From an uncultured Gammaproteobacteria bacterium (GTDB lineage: Bacteria; Patescibacteriota; Microgenomatia; UBA1406): a DNA stretch of 64,000 nt. The translations under genes and the position numbers were made by a program. The stretch is from contig CAYPVH010000001.1 in NCBI GenBank assembly GCA_964414145.1, positions 82,816-146,815 of the forward strand, read 5' to 3'. How positions within the stretch are numbered: position 1 is the stretch's first letter; each line of letters starts with the position of its first letter. Under the pieces are notes generated by a model. The model did no database searches and had not been told where the DNA came from. It saw only the letters and a program-made list of their open reading frames with translations. This document shows, one piece after another, positions 6,221 to 37,464 of this stretch.

Positions 6221-6336
6221 TTACTTAATATAACAAATTACTGCTCCTTTTTTTGAATTAGCACTTTAATCTGTTTACCTTTTTTTATCCTATAACATTG
6301 ACCATACACATTTTTTGTGCTAAAATTGTTGTTCCA

Positions 6337-6363
6337 AGCTATCCTATAGGGTAGCTTTTTTTT
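6337..6363 (+). terminator. hairpin AGCTATCC-TATA-GGGTAGCT followed by a T-run
   Basis: Imperfect 8-bp stem followed by TTTTTTTT. No plus-strand ORF lies upstream. Confidence 0.4.
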
Positions 6364-31302: not shown

Positions 31303-31480
31303 TATGAAACAAGACCAGTATTACTCGATTGAAGAAGTTGCCAAAACCCTAAAAGTTGCCTATTTGACCGTGTATCGTTGGGTAAGAGCTAACCGCCTAA
31401 CTGCATACAAAGCGGGCAAACAATACAGAATAAGCAAGGATAATTTATCTCAGTTCTTAAAGAAATATGAAGCAAGATAG
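31286..31480 (+). CDS. excisionase-family HTH DNA-binding protein
   Basis: YYSIEEVAKTLKVAYLTVYRWVRANRLTAYKAGKQYRISKDNLSQFL. Confidence 0.75.
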   Translation: MINITNMKQDQYYSIEEVAKTLKVAYLTVYRWVRANRLTAYKAGKQYRISKDNLSQFLKKYEAR

Positions 31481-33416
31481 TCTTTATGAAAATAACAAAG
31501 CAGATTTGCTCGACATCTTTGGAGCGAGTGAGTTGTTGGGTGTATCTACTGCTACCGTAAGGAATTGGATTAAAACAGGTCAGCTTGCTTACTCCCCTAA
31601 TGAAAGAGGAAAACTGTTGGATAAAAAACAAATTGAACAACTTAAAACCGACATTCAGAACGGAAAAACTGAACGACTAAATAATCGAGCAAATAAAAGA
31701 AATTCAAAATCTACCTTCATCCCGATTGAACAATTAAGCCATAAAGACAAACTGCCACTTTTACAGTCATATATCAAACAGATAAATAAACACCAAATAT
31801 CGCTTCAAACCGCCCTGCTCATTCACAGCCTTTCGGTATTAAAAAAAGCCAAACTAGCGACTTTCGATGAACCTGTTTCAACCCTAAATGAAGTCAAATT
31901 TAAGAACAAAAATATAGAGAAGGTAATACTTGAATGGCAAGAAAAAATAGGAAGGATAAATCTATCTAACCTTCAAGAATTGTTAAACATAGAAGATGTA
32001 TTCAGCTCTGATAGCCTTGGTGTTTTATATCAATCCTTGCTTGATGAGGGCAAAAAGTCCCAAGGCGGTTCTTATTACACCCCCAAAACACTAATTGATG
32101 ATGTTGTTAAAGATTTATCTAGCCAGATAAAGAAAGGCTCAAAGGTTCTCGACCCTTGTTGTGGAACAGGACAGTTTCTGGTTGCTTTTTCAGAACATAT
32201 CTCCAACCCATTACTTTTATGGGGTTACGATATTGACCCGATAGCAGTACAAATTGCAAAAATAAATCTTGTTACAAGCTATCCAGAAATTGATTTTTAT
32301 CCGAATATATTCGTGGCAAACAGCCTCAGAGAAAACCCTGATGGTAAATTTGACATTATTGCAACAAATCCACCTTGGGGTTATCACTTTTCAATAGAGG
32401 AAAGCGAAATTTTGAGAAAGGCTTATCCAAATATCATTTCGAACGAGGCTTTTTCATACTTTTTAGTAAGAGGGACAAGTCTATTAAATGATAACGGTTC
32501 ACTTTGTTATGTGCTACCAGAGGCAATTACAAAGATAAAACAGCATCGAGATGTTAGAGGTTTTTTGTTAAGTGGTAGTGCTATTAAAAGCATTAAGCAT
32601 TTAGGAAATGTTTTTAGCAAAGTGTTATCACCCGTAATAACATTGACCGTCCAAAAAACAAATGGTCTTCAGAACGAAATTGAGGTTACACAAAAAGATG
32701 GACTAATGTCCAAAATCAAGCAAAGCAGATTTTTAAGCAACTCTGACTACACATTTGATACAAGTATTACCGAAAAAGACGAACTGTTAATAGCAAAAAT
32801 TTACAAAAATTGTTTTACAACATTAAAAGATAATGCAGATTGGGCATTGGGTATCGTTACAGGCAATAATAGTAAGTTCATTTCGACAACCAAAACAGAC
32901 AATAACGAGAAGGTGCTGAAAGGTGCAGACATACAAAAATATACTTTTAATCCTGCTACTTCGTTTGTCAAATTTACACCTGACGAATTTCAACAAGTCG
33001 CCCCTGTATGGAAATATCGAGCTAAAGAAAAACTAATTTATAAATTCATTTCAGGTGAGCTCGCCTTTGCATATGACGACAAACAAACATTAACTCTCAA
33101 TAGTGCAAATATACTCATTCCGAAAATTCCAGAAATCCCTACAAAAGTTGTGTTAGTTTTTCTCAACTCAAATATCTTTCAATACTTGTGGAAAAAGAAA
33201 TTTAATACGGTCAAAGTATTAAGAGGCGACCTTGAACTTTTACCCTTCCCACGAATTGATGATAAAACTCTTGCAGAAATCGAAAAAGATGTAGATAGTT
33301 TGTTATCTGGTATTGAAAGAGATAAACTCGAAGATGAACTAAATGAGTTCGTTTTTGATGCGTTTGGTTTAACATTAGATGAAAAACAATATATTAAAAA
33401 TTTTATAAGAAAATAA
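31467..33416 (+). CDS. N6-adenine DNA methyltransferase (Eco57I/TaqI-like, gamma class) with N-terminal HTH
   Basis: GGSYYTP, VLDPCCGTGQFLV (motif I), IIATNPPWG (motif IV NPPW). TaqI_C-like segment ALGIVTGNNSKF. N-terminal HTH LLGVSTATVRNWIKTGQL. Confidence 0.9.
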   Translation: MKQDSLYENNKADLLDIFGASELLGVSTATVRNWIKTGQLAYSPNERGKLLDKKQIEQLKTDIQNGKTERLNNRANKRNSKSTFIPIEQLSHKDKLPLLQSYIKQINKHQISLQTALLIHSLSVLKKAKLATFDEPVSTLNEVKFKNKNIEKVILEWQEKIGRINLSNLQELLNIEDVFSSDSLGVLYQSLLDEGKKSQGGSYYTPKTLIDDVVKDLSSQIKKGSKVLDPCCGTGQFLVAFSEHISNPLLLWGYDIDPIAVQIAKINLVTSYPEIDFYPNIFVANSLRENPDGKFDIIATNPPWGYHFSIEESEILRKAYPNIISNEAFSYFLVRGTSLLNDNGSLCYVLPEAITKIKQHRDVRGFLLSGSAIKSIKHLGNVFSKVLSPVITLTVQKTNGLQNEIEVTQKDGLMSKIKQSRFLSNSDYTFDTSITEKDELLIAKIYKNCFTTLKDNADWALGIVTGNNSKFISTTKTDNNEKVLKGADIQKYTFNPATSFVKFTPDEFQQVAPVWKYRAKEKLIYKFISGELAFAYDDKQTLTLNSANILIPKIPEIPTKVVLVFLNSNIFQYLWKKKFNTVKVLRGDLELLPFPRIDDKTLAEIEKDVDSLLSGIERDKLEDELNEFVFDAFGLTLDEKQYIKNFIRK

Positions 33417-33418
33417 TT

Positions 33419-34165
33419 ATGCAATCACTAAAGCACCAATTAGACAGCTTAATCTCTCAACTATCAAAAGAGGATGAAGCAGTTTTGAGGCAAAAACTGG
33501 ATAACTTAATGTCTGTATATCCTTTTAACGAGTATGAATTTATCATTTCTACGCTCTTAGGATTAAAAAAACTTAACCTTGATGATTATTACTTAATGAG
33601 AGATGAGTATATTGCAAGAAATATGTATCTTCATATCTTCGAGATAAGTGCTCCGAGAGGTTTTGGGGAATTATGGGCTCAAGGGCATTTGAAGGAGTTA
33701 GTACCTGACTTGGTCAAACCAACAAAAAAAATCGACCCTAACTATGCTGGGCAATATGACTTTATGTTAAATGTAGATGATAGCAAGTTCGTTACAATCG
33801 AAGTAAAAGCATCAAGAGCTGTAGATTTTAATAGCCACGAACCCTTATACATAAAAGCTCTATCAAAAGATGAAGATATGCCTTTTGATATGAACTTTCA
33901 ACAAGTTAAGCCCAAATGTTGCGATGTTTTTGTATGGATGGGCGTTTGGAGAGATGTTATTAGATATTGGGTCTTTTCTTCGAATGAGGTAGCGTCAAAC
34001 AAATACTATTCAACAGGGCAACACAGGGGTAATGTTGGAGAGGGACAACTGCATTTCAACAGAGAAAATATAGGCGAATTTGCAAGTTATGAGGCAAAAT
34101 CCGACAGCTTAAAGCAAGCTATTCTTGACGCATACCTAAGACAAATTGCCCCAATTAAGAAATGA
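33419..34165 (+). CDS. candidate cognate restriction endonuclease (PD-(D/E)xK-like)
   Basis: YDFML...FVTIEVKASR fits D...E-x-K. It starts 2 nt after the MTase stop. Confidence 0.5.
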   Translation: MQSLKHQLDSLISQLSKEDEAVLRQKLDNLMSVYPFNEYEFIISTLLGLKKLNLDDYYLMRDEYIARNMYLHIFEISAPRGFGELWAQGHLKELVPDLVKPTKKIDPNYAGQYDFMLNVDDSKFVTIEVKASRAVDFNSHEPLYIKALSKDEDMPFDMNFQQVKPKCCDVFVWMGVWRDVIRYWVFSSNEVASNKYYSTGQHRGNVGEGQLHFNRENIGEFASYEAKSDSLKQAILDAYLRQIAPIKK

Positions 34166-34168
34166 GCT

Positions 34169-35683
34169 ATGAAAGCAGTCATAATTGCACGAGTATCAAC
34201 AGAAGAACAAAAAGACGCAGGAAATTCCCTGCCAGCTCAAATAGTTCGCCTTGAAACTTATTGCGAAAGAAAAGGCTTTGAAGTTATCAAGAAATTCAGC
34301 TTTGACGAGAGTGCATATAAAAACAACCGAGAAGAATTTGACAGTATCTTGGACTACATAATCGGGCTAAAAGAGACTATAGCCGTTTGTTTTGACAAAG
34401 TAGACAGGTTATCAAGAAATGTTTTTGATATGCGGGTTGCCACTCTTTACGAGAAAGCACTTAAAGACGAGGTTGAGTTACATTTTCCCTCAGACGGACA
34501 GGTTATCAACAGTAAAATCTCGGCAGTTGAGAAGTTTCAGTTTGGTATTAGCTTAGGACTGGCTAAATACTTCTCAGACGCCATTAGCGACAATGTTAAA
34601 CGGGCACAGGAACAAATGGTTAGAAGCGGTATATTCCCTGGCAAAGCTCCTTACGGCTATCGCAACATAGATAAAGAGGACGGCAACAAATGGATTGAAA
34701 TTGACCCAATAAAAGCTCAGGTTGTAGAAAAAATGTATGAGTGGTATTCAATAGGTAGTTATTCAATGAACGAGATAAGAGCCGAGCTTAAAAAGGTGTT
34801 TAATGTTGATTTCTCAAAGGGTTATATTGACGCAATTTTGAAAAATCCCTTTTACTGCGGGACAATGGTTTACAACGAAAAAGAATATCCTCACTATTAC
34901 GACAGGGTAATTACCCAAGAGCTTTTTGACAAAGTCCAAGAAATTAAAGCGGGACACCATAAAAAGCACTTCAAATATGCTGGTTTACCCTTCTTATACC
35001 GAGGTCTAATCAGATGTGCCGATTGTGGTTGCCTGATAACCCCTGAAAGGAAAACCAAGAAAAGCGGTAAGACTTATCATTACTACCACTGCACCCAATA
35101 CAACGGCAAGCACGGGGCAGAGTGGCTGACAGAGGACGACCTGACCAAACAGTTCTCGGCAGTCTTTGACAAGCTACAAATGCCACAAGAAGCCGTAGAC
35201 GATATTGTTGAAGCACTACAGACTAACCATAAGCACAAATCAGACTTTTACCACGACTTGCTAAATCGCTATCAGACTGAACACCAAAAGTATGAGACAG
35301 GCATTGAGAAAGCCTATGACGACTACCTGCTCGGTAGTATTACTAAGGACAAGTATGAGGAAAAACGAAAAGAGTATCGGGCAAATCAGAAAGCAATAAC
35401 CAAGAAAATTGAGAAACTACAATTTGCCGATGAGGAATACTATATAACCTCAGAATACCTGCTAAAACTGGCTTCTAACGCAGGAAAATTGTTTGAAAGT
35501 TCTGAAGCCCACGAAAAACGGCTACTTTTGAAGATGGCACTTCAGAACTTGGAGTTGAATGGCAAAACAGCCCGATATGACTGGATAAAACCCTTTGACA
35601 AGATAGCTTTTTACGCCTCTCGTCAAGCTTGGCTCCCCCGCCTGGACTCGAACCAGGAACCTACCGATTACATTTATCTCTAG
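34169..35683 (+). CDS. large serine recombinase (integrase)
   Basis: N-terminal resolvase domain VIIARVSTEEQ...DRLSR. Recombinase domain and zinc ribbon CADCGC...YHYYHC. Coiled-coil C-terminus. The last 18 codons are antisense to the tRNA 3' exon. Confidence 0.9.
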   Translation: MKAVIIARVSTEEQKDAGNSLPAQIVRLETYCERKGFEVIKKFSFDESAYKNNREEFDSILDYIIGLKETIAVCFDKVDRLSRNVFDMRVATLYEKALKDEVELHFPSDGQVINSKISAVEKFQFGISLGLAKYFSDAISDNVKRAQEQMVRSGIFPGKAPYGYRNIDKEDGNKWIEIDPIKAQVVEKMYEWYSIGSYSMNEIRAELKKVFNVDFSKGYIDAILKNPFYCGTMVYNEKEYPHYYDRVITQELFDKVQEIKAGHHKKHFKYAGLPFLYRGLIRCADCGCLITPERKTKKSGKTYHYYHCTQYNGKHGAEWLTEDDLTKQFSAVFDKLQMPQEAVDDIVEALQTNHKHKSDFYHDLLNRYQTEHQKYETGIEKAYDDYLLGSITKDKYEEKRKEYRANQKAITKKIEKLQFADEEYYITSEYLLKLASNAGKLFESSEAHEKRLLLKMALQNLELNGKTARYDWIKPFDKIAFYASRQAWLPRLDSNQEPTDYIYL

Positions 35684-35950
35684 ATTTCTCTAAAGCATGG
35701 ACTATCTCATCACCCACATTGCTGTGGGGTAGGGCGCTCGTGGAGAGGTTATTGGTTGAACTCCTCACTCTCTAGTCTCTGCACCTTCTTGGCTACTTCT
35801 ATGTTCTTTCACCAAACTTGGCTCAGGATTACCATATTCCATAAAAGGAACTTAGGCTTCCCTGAATTCACCCTATTTTTCCTTGAGTGTTACCACTCAA
35901 GGCTGCAATCTTTGTTACAGTCGGTTGCTCTACCATTGAGCTACAGGGGA
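35630..35950 (-). tRNA. tRNA-Asn(GUU), interrupted by a group I intron; exons 35950-35917 and 35670-35630
   Basis: The joined exons give a 75-nt cloverleaf. Acceptor stem UCCCCUG/CGGGGGA, D stem GCUC/GAGC, anticodon stem ACCGA/UCGGU, loop CUGUUAA. T arm CCUGG-UUCGAGU-CCAGG, G73, encoded CCA. Confidence 0.85.
35671..35916 (-). ncRNA. group I (IC3-like) self-splicing intron, ORF-less, 246 nt
   Basis: The 5' exon ends in U and the intron ends in G. Guide sequence GAUUGCAG pairs with both exons. Three GNRA-capped hairpins are present. Core strings are GCCUAAG, CCUGAGCCAAG and AAGGUGCAGAGACUAGA. Confidence 0.8.
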
Positions 35951-35952
35951 AA

Positions 35953-35970
35953 TTCCGCCGGTAGGCGGAT
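35953..35970. repeat. left arm of perfect 18-bp inverted repeat (TTCCGCCGGTAGGCGGAT), itself a hairpin
   Basis: Exact reverse complement of 36252-36269. It lies 2 nt from the tRNA 5' end and 1 nt from the GIY-YIG stop codon. Confidence 0.9.
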
Positions 35971-35971
35971 T

Positions 35972-36232
35972 TTAAACGCCTACTGACTTAATCAATCTTT
36001 TAATGAACTGCCTTCCTTGATAGCTTTTCAATTTCTTTTCTCTTTCTACTGCTCTATATCTTGAGATAAGCTTTTCTTTAAAAATTAACTGCCATTCACC
36101 GTCAAATCTCGCAGTATAACTTCTTTTTAAAACTCTGCTATTGTGTTCTTTTACCCTCTTAATCAAGCTATCAGTCTGACCAATATATATTTTGTTATAC
36201 TTTTTGTTATATAAAGCATATACCCAAAACAT
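35972..36232 (-). CDS. small free-standing GIY-YIG nuclease-domain protein
   Basis: MFWVYALYNKKYNKIYIGQTDSLIKRVKEHN, giving a GIY-like VYALY...YIG signature. 86 aa. Confidence 0.85.
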   Translation of the reverse strand: MFWVYALYNKKYNKIYIGQTDSLIKRVKEHNSRVLKRSYTARFDGEWQLIFKEKLISRYRAVEREKKLKSYQGRQFIKRLIKSVGV

Positions 36233-36251
36233 AGTACAATTATACTAGATC

Positions 36252-36269
36252 ATCCGCCTACCGGCGGAA
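36252..36269. repeat. right arm of perfect 18-bp inverted repeat (ATCCGCCTACCGGCGGAA)
   Basis: Exact reverse complement of 35953-35970. It lies 19 nt upstream of the GIY-YIG start. Confidence 0.9.
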
Positions 36270-36393
36270 AAGAGCTATGCGAACTTAAGTATATTACCAT
36301 AAAAAGGAGAGAGTTTGAATATGAAGTAACCATTAAAGCTTCTGTTTATTAATGTGGTTGAAATATTACTTATAATATCTTATAATATTTGCT

Positions 36394-37464
36394 ATGGTTA
36401 CTATTGAATCGATGCTCAAGGGGCGTTTAGGTTATGCTCCTACTCCTATGGAGCCCCCTCCTTCTGAAACTAAAGACAATGTCGTTCAATTTTCATTAAC
36501 AGAAGGCTGCAATCACAATTCCTGCACCTACTGCACTATGTATAAAGATGGTCGAGTAGTTTATAGCGTAAAATCAGAGCAAGAATATTATGACCATGTA
36601 AGGCAGGTTCTAGCCTATCTAAGAAGATATCCTAGTGCCTTAAATCAAATCGATAGAATTTTTATTGGGGCAGGCAACGCTCTCAGTGCCGATTTCGATA
36701 CTTTGTTTTTTGCATCACAATACTCTTTACAAGCTGTACTACAAGCAACTGGAAGGCTACCAAGAAGGGTAGCTGTTTATGGTAATACAAAAGATATTCT
36801 AAAACAAGGAGAAGAAAATCTGCACATGCTATATTGTGGTGGCACTTGTGGCAACTGTTCTATACAACGACTGGGTGGAAGACGTGGTTTAGAAGTAGTT
36901 TACTGGGGTCTTGAAAGCGGAAGCGATAAGGTTTTGAAAATAGCAGGTAAGGGCTATGATAGTAATGAGGCATATAGAGCAGGCAAAATTCTTGATTATT
37001 CTGGAATACGAGCATCCGTAATGGTCATGCCAGGTTTAGGTGGTATTACTCATTCATACGATCACGAAGTAGACACGGCAAATTTACTAAACTACATACG
37101 GCCAGAATGGATAACCTTTATGGCTCTAACCATTTGTAATGGTACTCCATATGCCAGATGGATAGAAAGAGAAGAAGCAGGAAACAGAAATAGGCGATTA
37201 ACACCAGCAGAAATTGCAGAGCAAACAGCCAGAATTATCGAAAGATTAGATTTCTCCACCAGTATTGGAGTTCATGGGCAAGATATCCACCCAACATTAG
37301 ATGGAAACCCTGTTCCTATTGGGGTATGTCAGATAGAAGATCGATTTGATGCGCAAGATGTTGCCACTCAAATTAGAGCAGGAATCCAAGGCTTAGAAGA
37401 CAGAAGAACAAGAAGGTTCCAAATACCATTTAGTTTTACACCATTAAGACGATCTAGAAGCTAA
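36394..37464 (+). CDS. radical SAM-like enzyme with non-canonical CX4CX2C cluster motif
   Basis: EGCNHNSCTYCTMY, FIGAGNA and GLESGSDKVL resemble radical SAM core motifs. TATAAT at 36381-36386 sits 7 nt before the ATG. Confidence 0.65.
   Translation: MVTIESMLKGRLGYAPTPMEPPPSETKDNVVQFSLTEGCNHNSCTYCTMYKDGRVVYSVKSEQEYYDHVRQVLAYLRRYPSALNQIDRIFIGAGNALSADFDTLFFASQYSLQAVLQATGRLPRRVAVYGNTKDILKQGEENLHMLYCGGTCGNCSIQRLGGRRGLEVVYWGLESGSDKVLKIAGKGYDSNEAYRAGKILDYSGIRASVMVMPGLGGITHSYDHEVDTANLLNYIRPEWITFMALTICNGTPYARWIEREEAGNRNRRLTPAEIAEQTARIIERLDFSTSIGVHGQDIHPTLDGNPVPIGVCQIEDRFDAQDVATQIRAGIQGLEDRRTRRFQIPFSFTPLRRSRS

Follow-up and report, generated by a model that had tools for sequence, protein, structure and literature searches.

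In REPtrons and in IS200/IS605 elements, one gene lies within inverted hairpin repeats, copies of the hairpin are dispersed, and the enzyme acts on folded single-stranded DNA. A comparable arrangement has been described for the Ssn nucleases, and the REP/RAYT analogy was drawn by the authors of that study (Chenal et al. 2025, PMC11893778). SsnA is a single-domain protein of 94 aa that binds its hairpin only as single-stranded DNA, cuts upstream of it, and reads both sequence and structure; Y6, Y17 and E64 were mutated to kill its activity, and the authors contrast Ssn with GIY-YIG enzymes that carry a DNA-binding domain (PMC11893778). Hairpins flank 42% of ssn genes on both sides, an organization termed IS-like, and 81% of the genomes with >200 repeats encode Ssn, with no lower limit set on repeat number (PMC11893778). 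The NTS repeats are rarely found inside genes and reach hundreds of copies in Ssn-rich genomes; differing specificities among Ssn-hairpin pairs are expected (PMC11893778). Two other systems touch on tRNA genes: SegB of phage T4/T6, a free-standing GIY-YIG homing endonuclease in tRNA clusters (PMC2330249, PMC13096335), and the group I introns at position 35/36 of Patescibacteria tRNA-Asn, a published class whose homing endonuclease genes are HNH and lie inside the intron (PMC13011429).

The locus described here lies in a 64-kb stretch of DNA, which we call the window, and belongs to a family of small cassettes that is spread across the ultra-small Patescibacteria at one address, between tRNA-Asn and the tRNA promoter. 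The closest known system is the Ssn family (cd10448), of which the nuclease looks like a relative. The palindrome shared by the family, TCCGCC-N4-GGCGGA, is referred to as H. The features of the locus, in window coordinates, are as follows:

1857 to 1872, no strand assigned: third hairpin copy with the same stem, TCCGCCAACTGGCGGA, intergenic, a common family variant
35630 to 35670, minus: tRNA-Asn 3' exon with CCA encoded (ARAGORN, introns allowed)
35671 to 35916, minus: group I intron in the anticodon loop, outside the cassette (Rfam RF00028, ARAGORN)
35917 to 35950, minus: tRNA-Asn(GTT) 5' exon (ARAGORN, introns allowed)
35953 to 35970, minus: downstream hairpin arm, ATCCGCC-TACC-GGCGGAA on the minus strand, inverted relative to the upstream arm
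35972 to 36232, minus: gene for an 86-aa single-domain GIY-YIG nuclease, Ssn-like (Pfam, predicted structure, paralogue identity)
35977 to 35985, minus: ORF 3' end, CAGTAGGCG, encoding the atypical C-terminus SVGV-stop; similar to H in its right half
36239 to 36244, minus: TATAAT box, 6 nt ahead of the ATG (read from the sequence)
36252 to 36269, minus: upstream hairpin arm, TTCCGCC-GGTA-GGCGGAT on the minus strand, the window copy of H
36272 to 36283, minus: decayed leftover of tRNA-Asn nt 1-13, TTCGCATAGCTC against TCCCCTGTAGCTC in the tRNA (position and relatives)
36292 to 36297, minus: TAATAT, possibly the -10 box that served tRNA-Asn originally (position only)

An earlier note on this DNA, made from the letters alone, had read the 86-aa ORF as a GIY-YIG gene and remarked that a bare catalytic domain is unusual for a homing enzyme. 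The identity is confirmed by a match to Pfam PF01541 (E = 1.2e-11; 45.1 bits, where the cut-off is 22.6), which covers profile positions 1-70 of 78 and is the only significant Pfam match of the protein; no HUH/Y1 transposase-like domain was found in it. The AlphaFold model has a pLDDT of 93.7, and the Foldseek search with it returned the GIY-YIG domains of UPF0213, Slx1, I-TevI and UvrC, the nearest being UPF0213, Slx1 and the I-TevI catalytic domain. The three-strand-plus-helices GIY-YIG fold and the catalytic residues (two Tyr, Arg and Glu) are present. Across 50 homologues there is no variation at Y16, G18, R26, E53, R64 or E65, and conservation reaches at least 90% at Y5 and H30; the spacing of Y5, Y16 and E65 is close to that of Y6, Y17 and E64 in SsnA. 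A dN/dS of 0.05-0.35 among relatives shows purifying selection on the protein. The domain fills the 86 residues and leaves no room for a DNA-binding domain, and relatives are 82-105 aa long. The remark on the bare catalytic domain was thus correct, and the Ssn precedent accounts for it, since there specificity is supplied by the DNA hairpin.

The gene is flanked by a perfect inverted repeat of 18 nt, as had been noticed: TTCCGCCGGTAGGCGGAT at 35953-35970 has its exact reverse complement at 36252-36269, with a gap of 281 nt, and a shuffled window yields 0.01 expected matches with up to 3 mismatches. Each arm is also a GC-rich hairpin on its own, for when folded as single-stranded DNA it forms a stem of 6 bp closed by a loop of 4 nt (-7.3 to -8.0 kcal/mol), a stability that none of 200 shuffles equalled. 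The downstream arm lies 1 nt past the stop codon and, as first described, 2 nt ahead of the tRNA-Asn 5' end at 35950; the upstream arm lies 19 nt before the ATG, so that the gene is flanked by hairpins at its 5' and 3' sides. The earlier note had proposed a search for further copies of the arm, and these exist: the third hairpin at 1857-1872, which brings H to 3 copies in the 64-kb window, and H in the loci of >70 relatives. Four independent metagenome assemblies contain the same structure (99.5-100% identity), which excludes an assembly artefact. The samples that carry this population are JGI 3300076594, 3300076584, 3300076591 and 3300076261.

The neighbouring tRNA-Asn(GTT) runs from 35950 to 35630 on the minus strand with a 246-nt insert when ARAGORN is run with introns allowed, and this insert is a group I intron (Rfam RF00028, 105.5 bits). 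The standard ARAGORN scan of the window, without introns, returned no tRNA because the intron hides the tRNA-Asn. The intron is of the same kind as those published at position 35/36 (PMC13011429), whereas the cassette is independent of it. On the 3' side of the tRNA-Asn lies a large serine recombinase element, and a second copy of the tRNA 3' half, marking the other end of that element, was not found in the window.

The promoters may be placed by comparison with relatives. At empty tRNA-Asn loci a TATAAT-like box precedes the tRNA by 15-25 nt, and at filled loci this promoter and its leader continue straight into the leftover 5' tRNA fragment. In the window, the TAATAT at 36292-36297, which a simple promoter scan did not call, is possibly the original -10 box of tRNA-Asn, now ~340 nt away from the tRNA. 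A TATAAT, often as CTGTTATAAT, also stands 6-8 nt before the ATG in relatives. The window copy at 36239-36244 likely promotes a leaderless nuclease mRNA together with the downstream tRNA; the promoter scan did not call it because it has no -35 box.

In the family, tRNA-Asn follows immediately 3' of the ORF in 78/78 assessable Patescibacteria loci. The usual order upstream of the ORF is the leftover tRNA nt 1-13, then H as a 16-nt palindrome, then GGTAGAGC, and H occupies this upstream position in 71-73 related loci. The leftover is identical to the resident tRNA at 13/13 positions in 48/73 related loci (the window has 7/13 in the best ungapped register); it is often longer, covering tRNA nt 1-25 or more, with H replacing the D-loop. 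The ORF stop codon falls inside the tRNA in ~60 loci. Most members carry H on the upstream side only, and an extra H between ORF and tRNA was seen directly before the tRNA in one locus (L019) and 24 nt upstream of it in two (L030, L071). Mirror-image GIY-YIG elements exist as well: they lie 3' of tRNA-Asn, and behind each of them comes a displaced fragment that runs from the T-loop to the tRNA 3' end. One distant subfamily (L100) uses the same tRNA-Asn address with a different palindrome, a CCTGCCTGCC..GGCAGGCAGG stem; the word-indexed search with its protein returned only L100 itself, so that covariation of nuclease and palindrome rests on few loci.

A 95-aa paralogue (L067) suggests a link between this family and Ssn. 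It has the same hairpin-gene-inverted hairpin layout, its arms are oriented as in the window, and the inverted copies of CGTCATTCCCGCGCAGGCGGGAATC that flank it are the published NTS/SRM consensus. The window protein is 31% identical to this canonical-NTS-flanked paralogue (BLASTP, E = 2e-9), and the family profile scores 44.8 bits for it against 26.4 bits for UPF0213 EF2693. As in Ssn, a single-domain GIY-YIG protein of ~90 aa without a DNA-binding extension is encoded between two GC-rich hairpins of roughly 16-28 nt that are inverted copies of each other, their sequence is kept and not their structure alone, and extra copies lie elsewhere in the genome. Unlike in Ssn, the hairpin is TCCGCC-N4-GGCGGA instead of ATTCCCGCG-N3-GCGGGAAT, and comparison of the flanking repeat with the SRM/NTS consensus CGTCATTCCCGCGMAVGCGGGAATCYRG gave no match; H is low-copy, and its distant copies lie mostly within ORFs, where NTS repeats are rare. 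The Patescibacteria family further differs in its fixed address at the tRNA-Asn 5' end, where the 5' segment of the tRNA is duplicated and the ORF terminates within the tRNA, and in its clear insertion polymorphism. The Ssn paper does not mention Patescibacteria or a tRNA linkage (PMC11893778). REPtrons differ by their enzyme, as the nuclease here is a hydrolytic GIY-YIG protein and not an HUH tyrosine transposase (RAYT), with no rejoining by itself. Integrative elements that target tRNA genes and bring a replacement tRNA segment, to which the large serine recombinase element of the window belongs, likewise have a displaced partial tRNA on one side and the intact tRNA on the other; in contrast to them, the cassette has no integrase, duplicates the 5' segment and is only ~300 bp long.

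Occupancy varies among loci. An unbiased sample of 64 tRNA-Asn sites comprises 57 empty ones, 5 with the cassette and 2 with remnants (occupancy ~8%), and an orthologous pair downstream of rpoD, one filled (L079) and one empty (L140), is homologous up to the tRNA leader. Empty sites had been named in the earlier note as something to look for in relatives, and a gene that is always present as what would speak against its proposal; the gene is not always present. Comparison with the empty orthologous sites shows that the cassette is an insertion, and that the original tRNA nt 1-13 are left upstream with a complete tRNA after the ORF. H is located exactly at the junction of leftover fragment and element in filled loci, and the first 24 nt of the intact tRNA beside the cassette are the same as at empty sites. 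Solo remnants or units and tandem copies were also found, including two identical 300-nt units in tandem (L080). The description of the locus as a compact nuclease cassette with terminal inverted hairpins therefore largely holds, as regards the conserved gene-hairpin unit, which is present or absent at orthologous loci, occurs in solo and tandem copies, and has a layout that recurs at the L067 paralogue and in Ssn genes. The termini fit it less well across the family: with the hairpin on the upstream side only in most members, in the D-loop position of the leftover, terminal inverted repeats are not the defining anatomy.

Two simpler histories of the insertion were considered and rejected. An insertion in the anticodon loop with a wholly host-derived leftover half does not fit the variable part of the leftover, which matches its own tRNA at a mean of 3.6/6 positions against 1.9 by chance, with one locus (L029) carrying an element-type segment that mismatches its own tRNA. 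A plain target-site duplication would not put H within the duplicated segment.

The palindrome itself is constrained. There are 98 exact-stem copies of H across hosts whose synonymous sites are saturated, and 7/44 two-change variants are compensatory; the sequence of H is under purifying selection. One locus (L040) has the same H variant (TCCGGC..GCCGGA) at its canonical and at a distant site. Single-change variants of the G-T wobble type number 5 on the sense strand and 3 on the other. H also occurs away from tRNAs, nested in H itself, and in the tips of intron hairpins. Its density in related contigs, ~0.5-0.9 per 100 kb, is well above chance but low, and it is similar in contigs with an empty tRNA-Asn site, so a dependence of H on the nuclease gene cannot be claimed. 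Viral contigs gave no family homologue, only weak N-terminal matches to the protein, and their 55 exact H matches are uninformative for a 16-mer in that much sequence; a phage vector is thus unsupported.

We propose that an Ssn-like single-domain GIY-YIG endonuclease and its cognate hairpin H together form a small selfish cassette of a Patescibacteria family, and we put the probability of this reading at roughly 0.6. By analogy with SsnA, the nuclease would bind H only as single-stranded DNA, which might be offered by the non-template strand during the heavy transcription of this locus, by replication, or by incoming transforming DNA, and it would cut a few nucleotides 5' of the hairpin. With the two H copies inverted as they are here, both cuts would lie immediately beyond the cassette, one at either end. 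Because hydrolytic nucleases do not join DNA, the insertion step calls for host repair: copying from an allele that holds the cassette, with homology provided by the conserved initial 13-25 nt of the tRNA, would spread the cassette and regenerate the duplication. The tRNA-Asn would be transcribed with the cassette or from a promoter within it and released by RNase P, and in most relatives the RNase P cut would remove the ORF stop codon, which may keep nuclease expression low. Several observations weigh against this reading. The strand and substrate preference are taken entirely from the SsnA analogy; the nearest solved structures are those of UPF0213 and Slx1, H differs from the Ssn hairpin consensus, and it is low-copy, at a density that is much the same where the tRNA-Asn site is empty. 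The one-sided H of most members, the location of distant copies mainly within ORFs and the need for host repair at the insertion step count against it too. Moreover, tRNA nt 1-24 next to the cassette equal those of empty sites, which leaves a nuclease that cuts empty alleles without obvious self-immunity.

A more general proposition, that Ssn-type nuclease-hairpin pairs are currently active site-specific mobile elements rather than domesticated repeats and that this Patescibacteria lineage inserts in tRNA gene loops, is possible but to be taken as tentative. In this case, the non-template strand folded as a cloverleaf would be cut, and host repair would duplicate part of the tRNA in such a way that the essential gene survives. 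A class of mobile elements would then be driven by a hairpin-guided single-stranded DNA nuclease without transposase or integrase, and the small GIY-YIG genes of several subfamilies beside tRNA genes would be explained.

Next comes a free-standing homing endonuclease of the SegB type, which would cut the double-stranded tRNA-Asn gene where the cassette is absent, within the D-loop or close to it; break repair would copy the cassette, and the palindrome would be an immunity scar in the leftover target. SegB, itself of the GIY-YIG type, reads a stem-loop motif that is conserved among tRNAs, and both homing and the segmental amplification of tRNA regions are driven by it. Here too a GIY-YIG gene sits among tRNA genes with tRNA stem-loop sequences at the site of action, the tandem units of L080 recall the amplified nuclease-tRNA units, and presence or absence at a fixed site, the filled and empty pair, the solo units, the position of H at the leftover junction and the mirror-image elements all speak for it. 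However, SegB is a multi-domain phage enzyme for double-stranded DNA with a 27-bp recognition site, and SegB and I-TevI require a DNA-binding domain, whereas here a bacterial chromosome encodes the catalytic domain alone, together with a dedicated palindrome. The functional tRNA beside the cassette would be re-cut, being identical to empty sites in nt 1-24, and H is conserved far beyond the needs of a scar and is present off tRNAs, nested, and in intron hairpin tips. We hold this explanation to be unlikely.

Less probable still is a domesticated host function, in which the nuclease modulates recombination or transformation at a hot spot of invaders, or RNA hairpins couple expression of the nuclease and tRNA-Asn through stabilising or processing signals. 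SsnA modulates natural transformation in Neisseria, the tRNA-Asn is also hit by the group I intron and the large serine recombinase element, wobble variants of H are commoner on the sense strand, and the protein is under purifying selection. Against this, occupancy of ~8% and the decayed remnants fit a cycle of gain and loss better, SsnA does not act on RNA, and no T-run terminator signature was found.

The earlier note had also raised collaborative homing, in which the nuclease cuts intron-less tRNA-Asn and so mobilises the adjacent ORF-less group I intron. Gene and intron adjoin in the window, and in relatives the leftover 5' half reaches as far as the anticodon loop, to within 2-3 nt of where the intron inserts. 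The co-occurrence expected from such a partnership is missing: the intron is present in 7-9/80 gene-bearing loci against 15-23/80 tRNA-Asn loci of the unbiased sample, where 0/5 gene-bearing loci have it. The intron is therefore not more frequent at loci that have the gene than at loci that lack it, and collaborative homing is unsupported. The endonucleases published for this intron site are, besides, intron-internal HNH genes (PMC13011429), and three gene-bearing loci carry long introns with an ORF of their own; we consider this explanation very improbable. That the arms have nothing to do with the gene, being common transcription terminators or hairpins that arose by chance, is scarcely credible: a TTTT does follow the 35953-35970 arm on the plus strand, but the terminator scan of 35400-36600 made no call, chance predicts 0.01 such repeats, and in >70 genomes the gene comes with this 16-nt sequence, where H precedes GGTAGAGC and not the T-run that follows the GC stem of an intrinsic terminator.

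Literature searches on GIY-YIG proteins with tRNA-Asn, Patescibacteria, YhbQ or RAYT gave no description of such an arrangement; new are the hairpin specificity and the stereotyped tRNA-Asn insertion with partial tRNA duplication. The Ssn paper left open the role of Ssn outside Neisseria and the mobility of hairpin-ssn-hairpin units, and the family is a natural experiment on both: it offers one fixed address, a filled and empty pair, solo and tandem derivatives, and a duplicated segment that records where DNA broke and rejoined. The 82-86-aa protein with TCCGCC-N4-GGCGGA is a new enzyme-hairpin pair for the development of single-stranded DNA tools. Recurrent annotation artefacts are explained as well, namely ORFs extended through the hairpin (..SPPAGGG..) and tRNA-Asn genes that are missed or truncated. 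If the selfish cassette is the right reading, transcription of tRNA-Asn in these reduced genomes has been put behind a selfish nuclease gene.

In relatives, the C-terminus of the nuclease reads ..IPL-stop or ..IPR-stop, or ..SPVAQW-stop, and is read from the tRNA itself. The atypical ORF 3' end in the window, CAGTAGGCG, may derive from half an H copy, which its resemblance to the right half of H suggests. It is also complementary to the neighbouring downstream arm (repeat I13).

The cassette upstream of tRNA-Asn is an insertion polymorphism: the 5' segment of the tRNA is duplicated, a 16-nt palindrome of the form TCCGCC-N4-GGCGGA (H) lies at the junction, and a complete tRNA follows the ORF. 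In the window, the perfect inverted repeat first read from the sequence alone stood up (0.01 expected by chance), and as single-stranded DNA each arm, an 18-nt copy of H, folds by itself into a hairpin with a 6-bp stem and a 4-nt loop, whose folding energy is about -7 to -8 kcal/mol. The ORF between the arms carries the GIY-YIG domain, and the end of the inner arm is 2 nt from the tRNA 5' end. The standard tRNA scan detects no tRNA in the window; tRNA-Asn emerges once ARAGORN allows introns, and its insert is a group I intron by Rfam (105.5 bits).

35950 to 35630, minus strand: tRNA-Asn(GTT) with a 246-nt insert (ARAGORN, introns allowed)
35953-35970: inner arm, the 18-mer TTCCGCCGGTAGGCGGAT
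35972..36232, minus strand: 86-aa GIY-YIG ORF
36252-36269: outer arm, exact reverse complement of the 18-mer

The cassette structure was found again at 99.5-100% identity in four independent assemblies. The earlier note had asked for further copies of the arm, and there is one: a third hairpin stem (TCCGCCAACTGGCGGA) at 1857-1872. No tRNA is near this copy, and the 346-nt intergenic region that holds it separates a Cys-rich ORF from a Nudix-like one.

Source names of homologues place the host among the Patescibacteria (CPR). The scan for relatives took one genome per species and found 458, of which the best 80 were examined. In 78 of these 80 loci, the ORF is followed on its own strand by tRNA-Asn sequence, which starts at the ORF end or at most a few tens of bases from it; contig ends truncate the remaining two. 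About 60 of the 78 ORFs have no stop codon of their own and read into the tRNA, stopping at the TAG of tRNA nt 8-10 (..IPL or ..IPR, then stop) or at the D-loop GGTAG (..SPVAQW, then stop). The order upstream of nearly every ORF begins with the native promoter and leader, followed by tRNA nt 1-13 and then H, which replaces the D-loop in this leftover tRNA fragment and is most commonly TCCGCCAGCTGGCGGA; after it come GGTAGAGC (nt 18-25), variable further tRNA sequence reaching the anticodon loop at furthest, and lastly TATAAT, with the ATG 6-8 nt beyond. Despite host-to-host differences in the acceptor stem, 48 of 73 loci have a leftover 13-nt fragment identical to their resident tRNA, and beyond nt 25 the match is partial (mean 3.6 of 6 versus 1.9 by chance). 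Some relatives have an additional H between ORF and tRNA: in L019 it abuts the tRNA, and in L030 and L071 it stands 24 nt further upstream. The window ORF is atypical, ending at its own stop codon with a second hairpin after it, and the upstream arm is the family's upstream H element with a decayed tRNA 5' fragment (TTCGCATAGCTC). Both arms have the unusual loop GGTA/TACC; therefore, one was copied from the other rather than separately acquired. Gene callers set the starts of family ORFs too far upstream, taking in the hairpin and the tRNA fragment and giving spurious N-termini such as FPGSSPPAGGGRA in the protein entries P0022, P0045, P0052 and many further family entries.

An exact-match metagenome scan with the first 24 nt of the window tRNA, in which the gene was not considered, gave an unbiased sample of 80 loci, and occupancy was counted in the 64 with sufficient upstream sequence. 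The empty tRNA-Asn sites that the earlier note proposed to look for are abundant: 57 of the 64 are empty, and in these a TATAAT box stands 15-25 nt before the tRNA; three carry the family gene and H, two a distant GIY-YIG subfamily, and two hold remnants. One remnant is reduced to an ORF 3' end; the other, a solo fragment, has a decayed hairpin. The filled locus L079 and the empty locus L140 are 76.6% identical across rpoD, promoter and leader up to the tRNA, and compared with the empty site L079 has an additional block of 308 nt following tRNA nt 13, with H at its start and a second copy of nt 1-13 at its end. The sigma-70 gene rpoD is the upstream neighbour of tRNA-Asn in many Patescibacteria loci (e.g. 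L140 11261-12290), and this conserved neighbour is a convenient anchor for comparing filled and empty sites; in the window, a divergent radical SAM gene lies upstream of the cassette instead. Solo units without an ORF occur between ORF and tRNA in L030, L031, L034, L044, L053, L071 and L080, the last with two identical 300-nt units. In L029, the segment after the hairpin is the same as in related elements but does not match the resident tRNA, a pattern that favours transfer from one host to another. Many contigs stop within about 30-130 nt of tRNA-Asn (L008, L012, L014, L020, L040, L052, L056, and 16 loci with short upstream sequence among L085-L164), which would fit presence/absence differences between strains or repeats that break assemblies there.

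Both the nuclease gene and the hairpin are constrained. Close pairs of nuclease genes have dN/dS of 0.05-0.35 at dS of 0.07-1.6, and the exact H stem is present in 98 copies across hosts with saturated synonymous sites. Compensatory changes appear in 7 of 44 two-change variants of H (chance about 3% by rough estimate), and L040 carries one variant stem at both the canonical and a distant site. H is low-copy, its frequency is equal in contigs with empty tRNA-Asn sites, and it is also found nested within H. Other positions of H were observed. H, exact or nearly so, caps a peripheral hairpin of the tRNA-Asn group I intron (L033 about 6326-6343, L071 about 1146-1161). It takes the place of the T-loop in pseudo-tRNA-Asn copies or 3' fragments just past the real tRNA (L045 6347-6362, L062 about 1417-1432, L107:115), and L015 (6345-6447) has, just past the real tRNA-Asn, a full-length pseudo-tRNA in which both the D-loop and the T-arm are replaced by H. 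Distant copies lie in frame within long ORFs (L025:937, L027:1321 and 1396, L032:3297, L044:4563, L072:5503, L077:3297), where they translate as ..PPAGG.. or ..RQLAD.. and recall the in-frame gene insertions of palindromic elements.

The structure model of the window protein (pLDDT 93.7) is a bare GIY-YIG domain, and the closest solved structures are UPF0213 BH0048 and EF2693, the Slx1 nuclease domain, At-HIGLE and the I-TevI catalytic domain. Among known systems, the closest is Ssn, a family of single-domain GIY-YIG proteins of about 94 aa. These recognise a hairpin repeat by both sequence and structure, bind it solely when it is single-stranded DNA and cut a few nucleotides upstream; 42% of ssn genes have the hairpin on both sides (Chenal et al. 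2025, PMC11893778). That paper makes no mention of tRNA or Patescibacteria. For the tRNA link, the nearest functional analogue is the phage homing endonuclease SegB (PMC2330249, PMC13096335). L067, a locus of a Patescibacteria MAG that has the tRNA-Asn cassette, also holds a paralogue with Ssn hairpins:

2277-2562 of L067 (reverse-complement coordinates), minus strand: 95-aa GIY-YIG gene

On either side of this paralogue stands CGTCATTCCCGCGCAGGCGGGAATC, the published Ssn consensus, in inverted copies (ATTCCCGC-GCAG-GCGGGAAT and ATTCCCGC-CTGC-GCGGGAAT), and its full-length identity with the window protein is 31% (E = 2e-9). The window layout, a gene with a hairpin on both sides, matches the Ssn architecture; the window hairpin differs from the Ssn consensus, and membership of the Ssn family is not justified yet. 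By analogy, the best-supported reading is that the window protein may work like Ssn. We propose that the nuclease would bind H in single-stranded DNA and cut on its 5' side, which at the inverted copies of the window would place the cuts just beyond both cassette ends. Host repair may then copy the cassette, finding its homology in the first 13-25 nt of the tRNA, which are conserved. The tRNA would be co-transcribed with the cassette and freed by RNase P, and in most relatives this cut would strip the ORF of its stop codon.

Collaborative homing, in which the nuclease would serve the adjacent group I intron, had been offered beside the mobile cassette and is not supported: the intron is Rfam-confirmed in 7 of 80 gene-bearing loci (9 at most) and is not enriched with the gene. 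In the unbiased sample, at least 15 of 80 loci have it by Rfam and 23 of 80 are flagged by ARAGORN, with none among the five gene-bearing loci. The intron is a bystander. Patescibacteria tRNA-Asn genes are already known to carry group I introns at 35/36, and the homing endonucleases of these introns, where present, are HNH genes within the intron (PMC13011429). Three gene-bearing loci (L022, L035, L083) have a long insert at the intron site that opens with its own ORF (ATG..YAD/PTAA..), probably one of these HNH genes. The idea that the arms act only as terminators fails, neither window arm qualifying in a terminator scan.

Besides the cassette on the 5' side, a second element adjoins the tRNA on its 3' side:

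34169-35683, plus strand: 504-aa large serine recombinase gene, running antisense into the tRNA-Asn 3' exon and intron
31467-34165, plus strand: N6-adenine DNA methyltransferase with a TaqI-like specificity domain and an unannotatable 248-aa ORF, adjoining the recombinase gene

The final residues of the recombinase (..WLPRLDSNQEPTDY..) are encoded by tRNA sequence. A homologue in the same place, its overlap with the tRNA running from the anticodon loop on, is present in 22 of 83 gene-bearing loci and in 19 of the 80 unbiased ones. The recombinase looks like part of a separate integrative element targeting tRNA-Asn, with the methyltransferase and the 248-aa ORF probably its cargo; within the window, there is no second tRNA 3' half marking its far end.

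The broader family comprises 12,660 clusters at E <= 1e-3, and several GIY-YIG subfamilies adjoin tRNA genes. In L162, L089 and L043, other subfamilies lie 3' of tRNA-Asn, each followed by a displaced fragment from the T-loop to the 3' end; these elements are mirror images of the 5'-side cassette. Upstream of tRNA-Asn in L100, a distant subfamily (36% identity) has the same architecture as the cassette with a different palindrome, the 20-nt CCTGCCTGCCGGCAGGCAGG, at nt 22/23 of the displaced tRNA 5' half. More small paralogues stand beside tRNA-Ser, tRNA-Met and tRNA-Arg (L008, L045 1964-2203, L052, L084, L088 10494-10773), and the true tRNA-Met of L045 has a pseudo 5' fragment ahead of it. A paralogue in L048 (9337-9588, minus strand) is bracketed by another inverted repeat, ACCCCCACACCAATT / AATTGGTGTGGGGGT.
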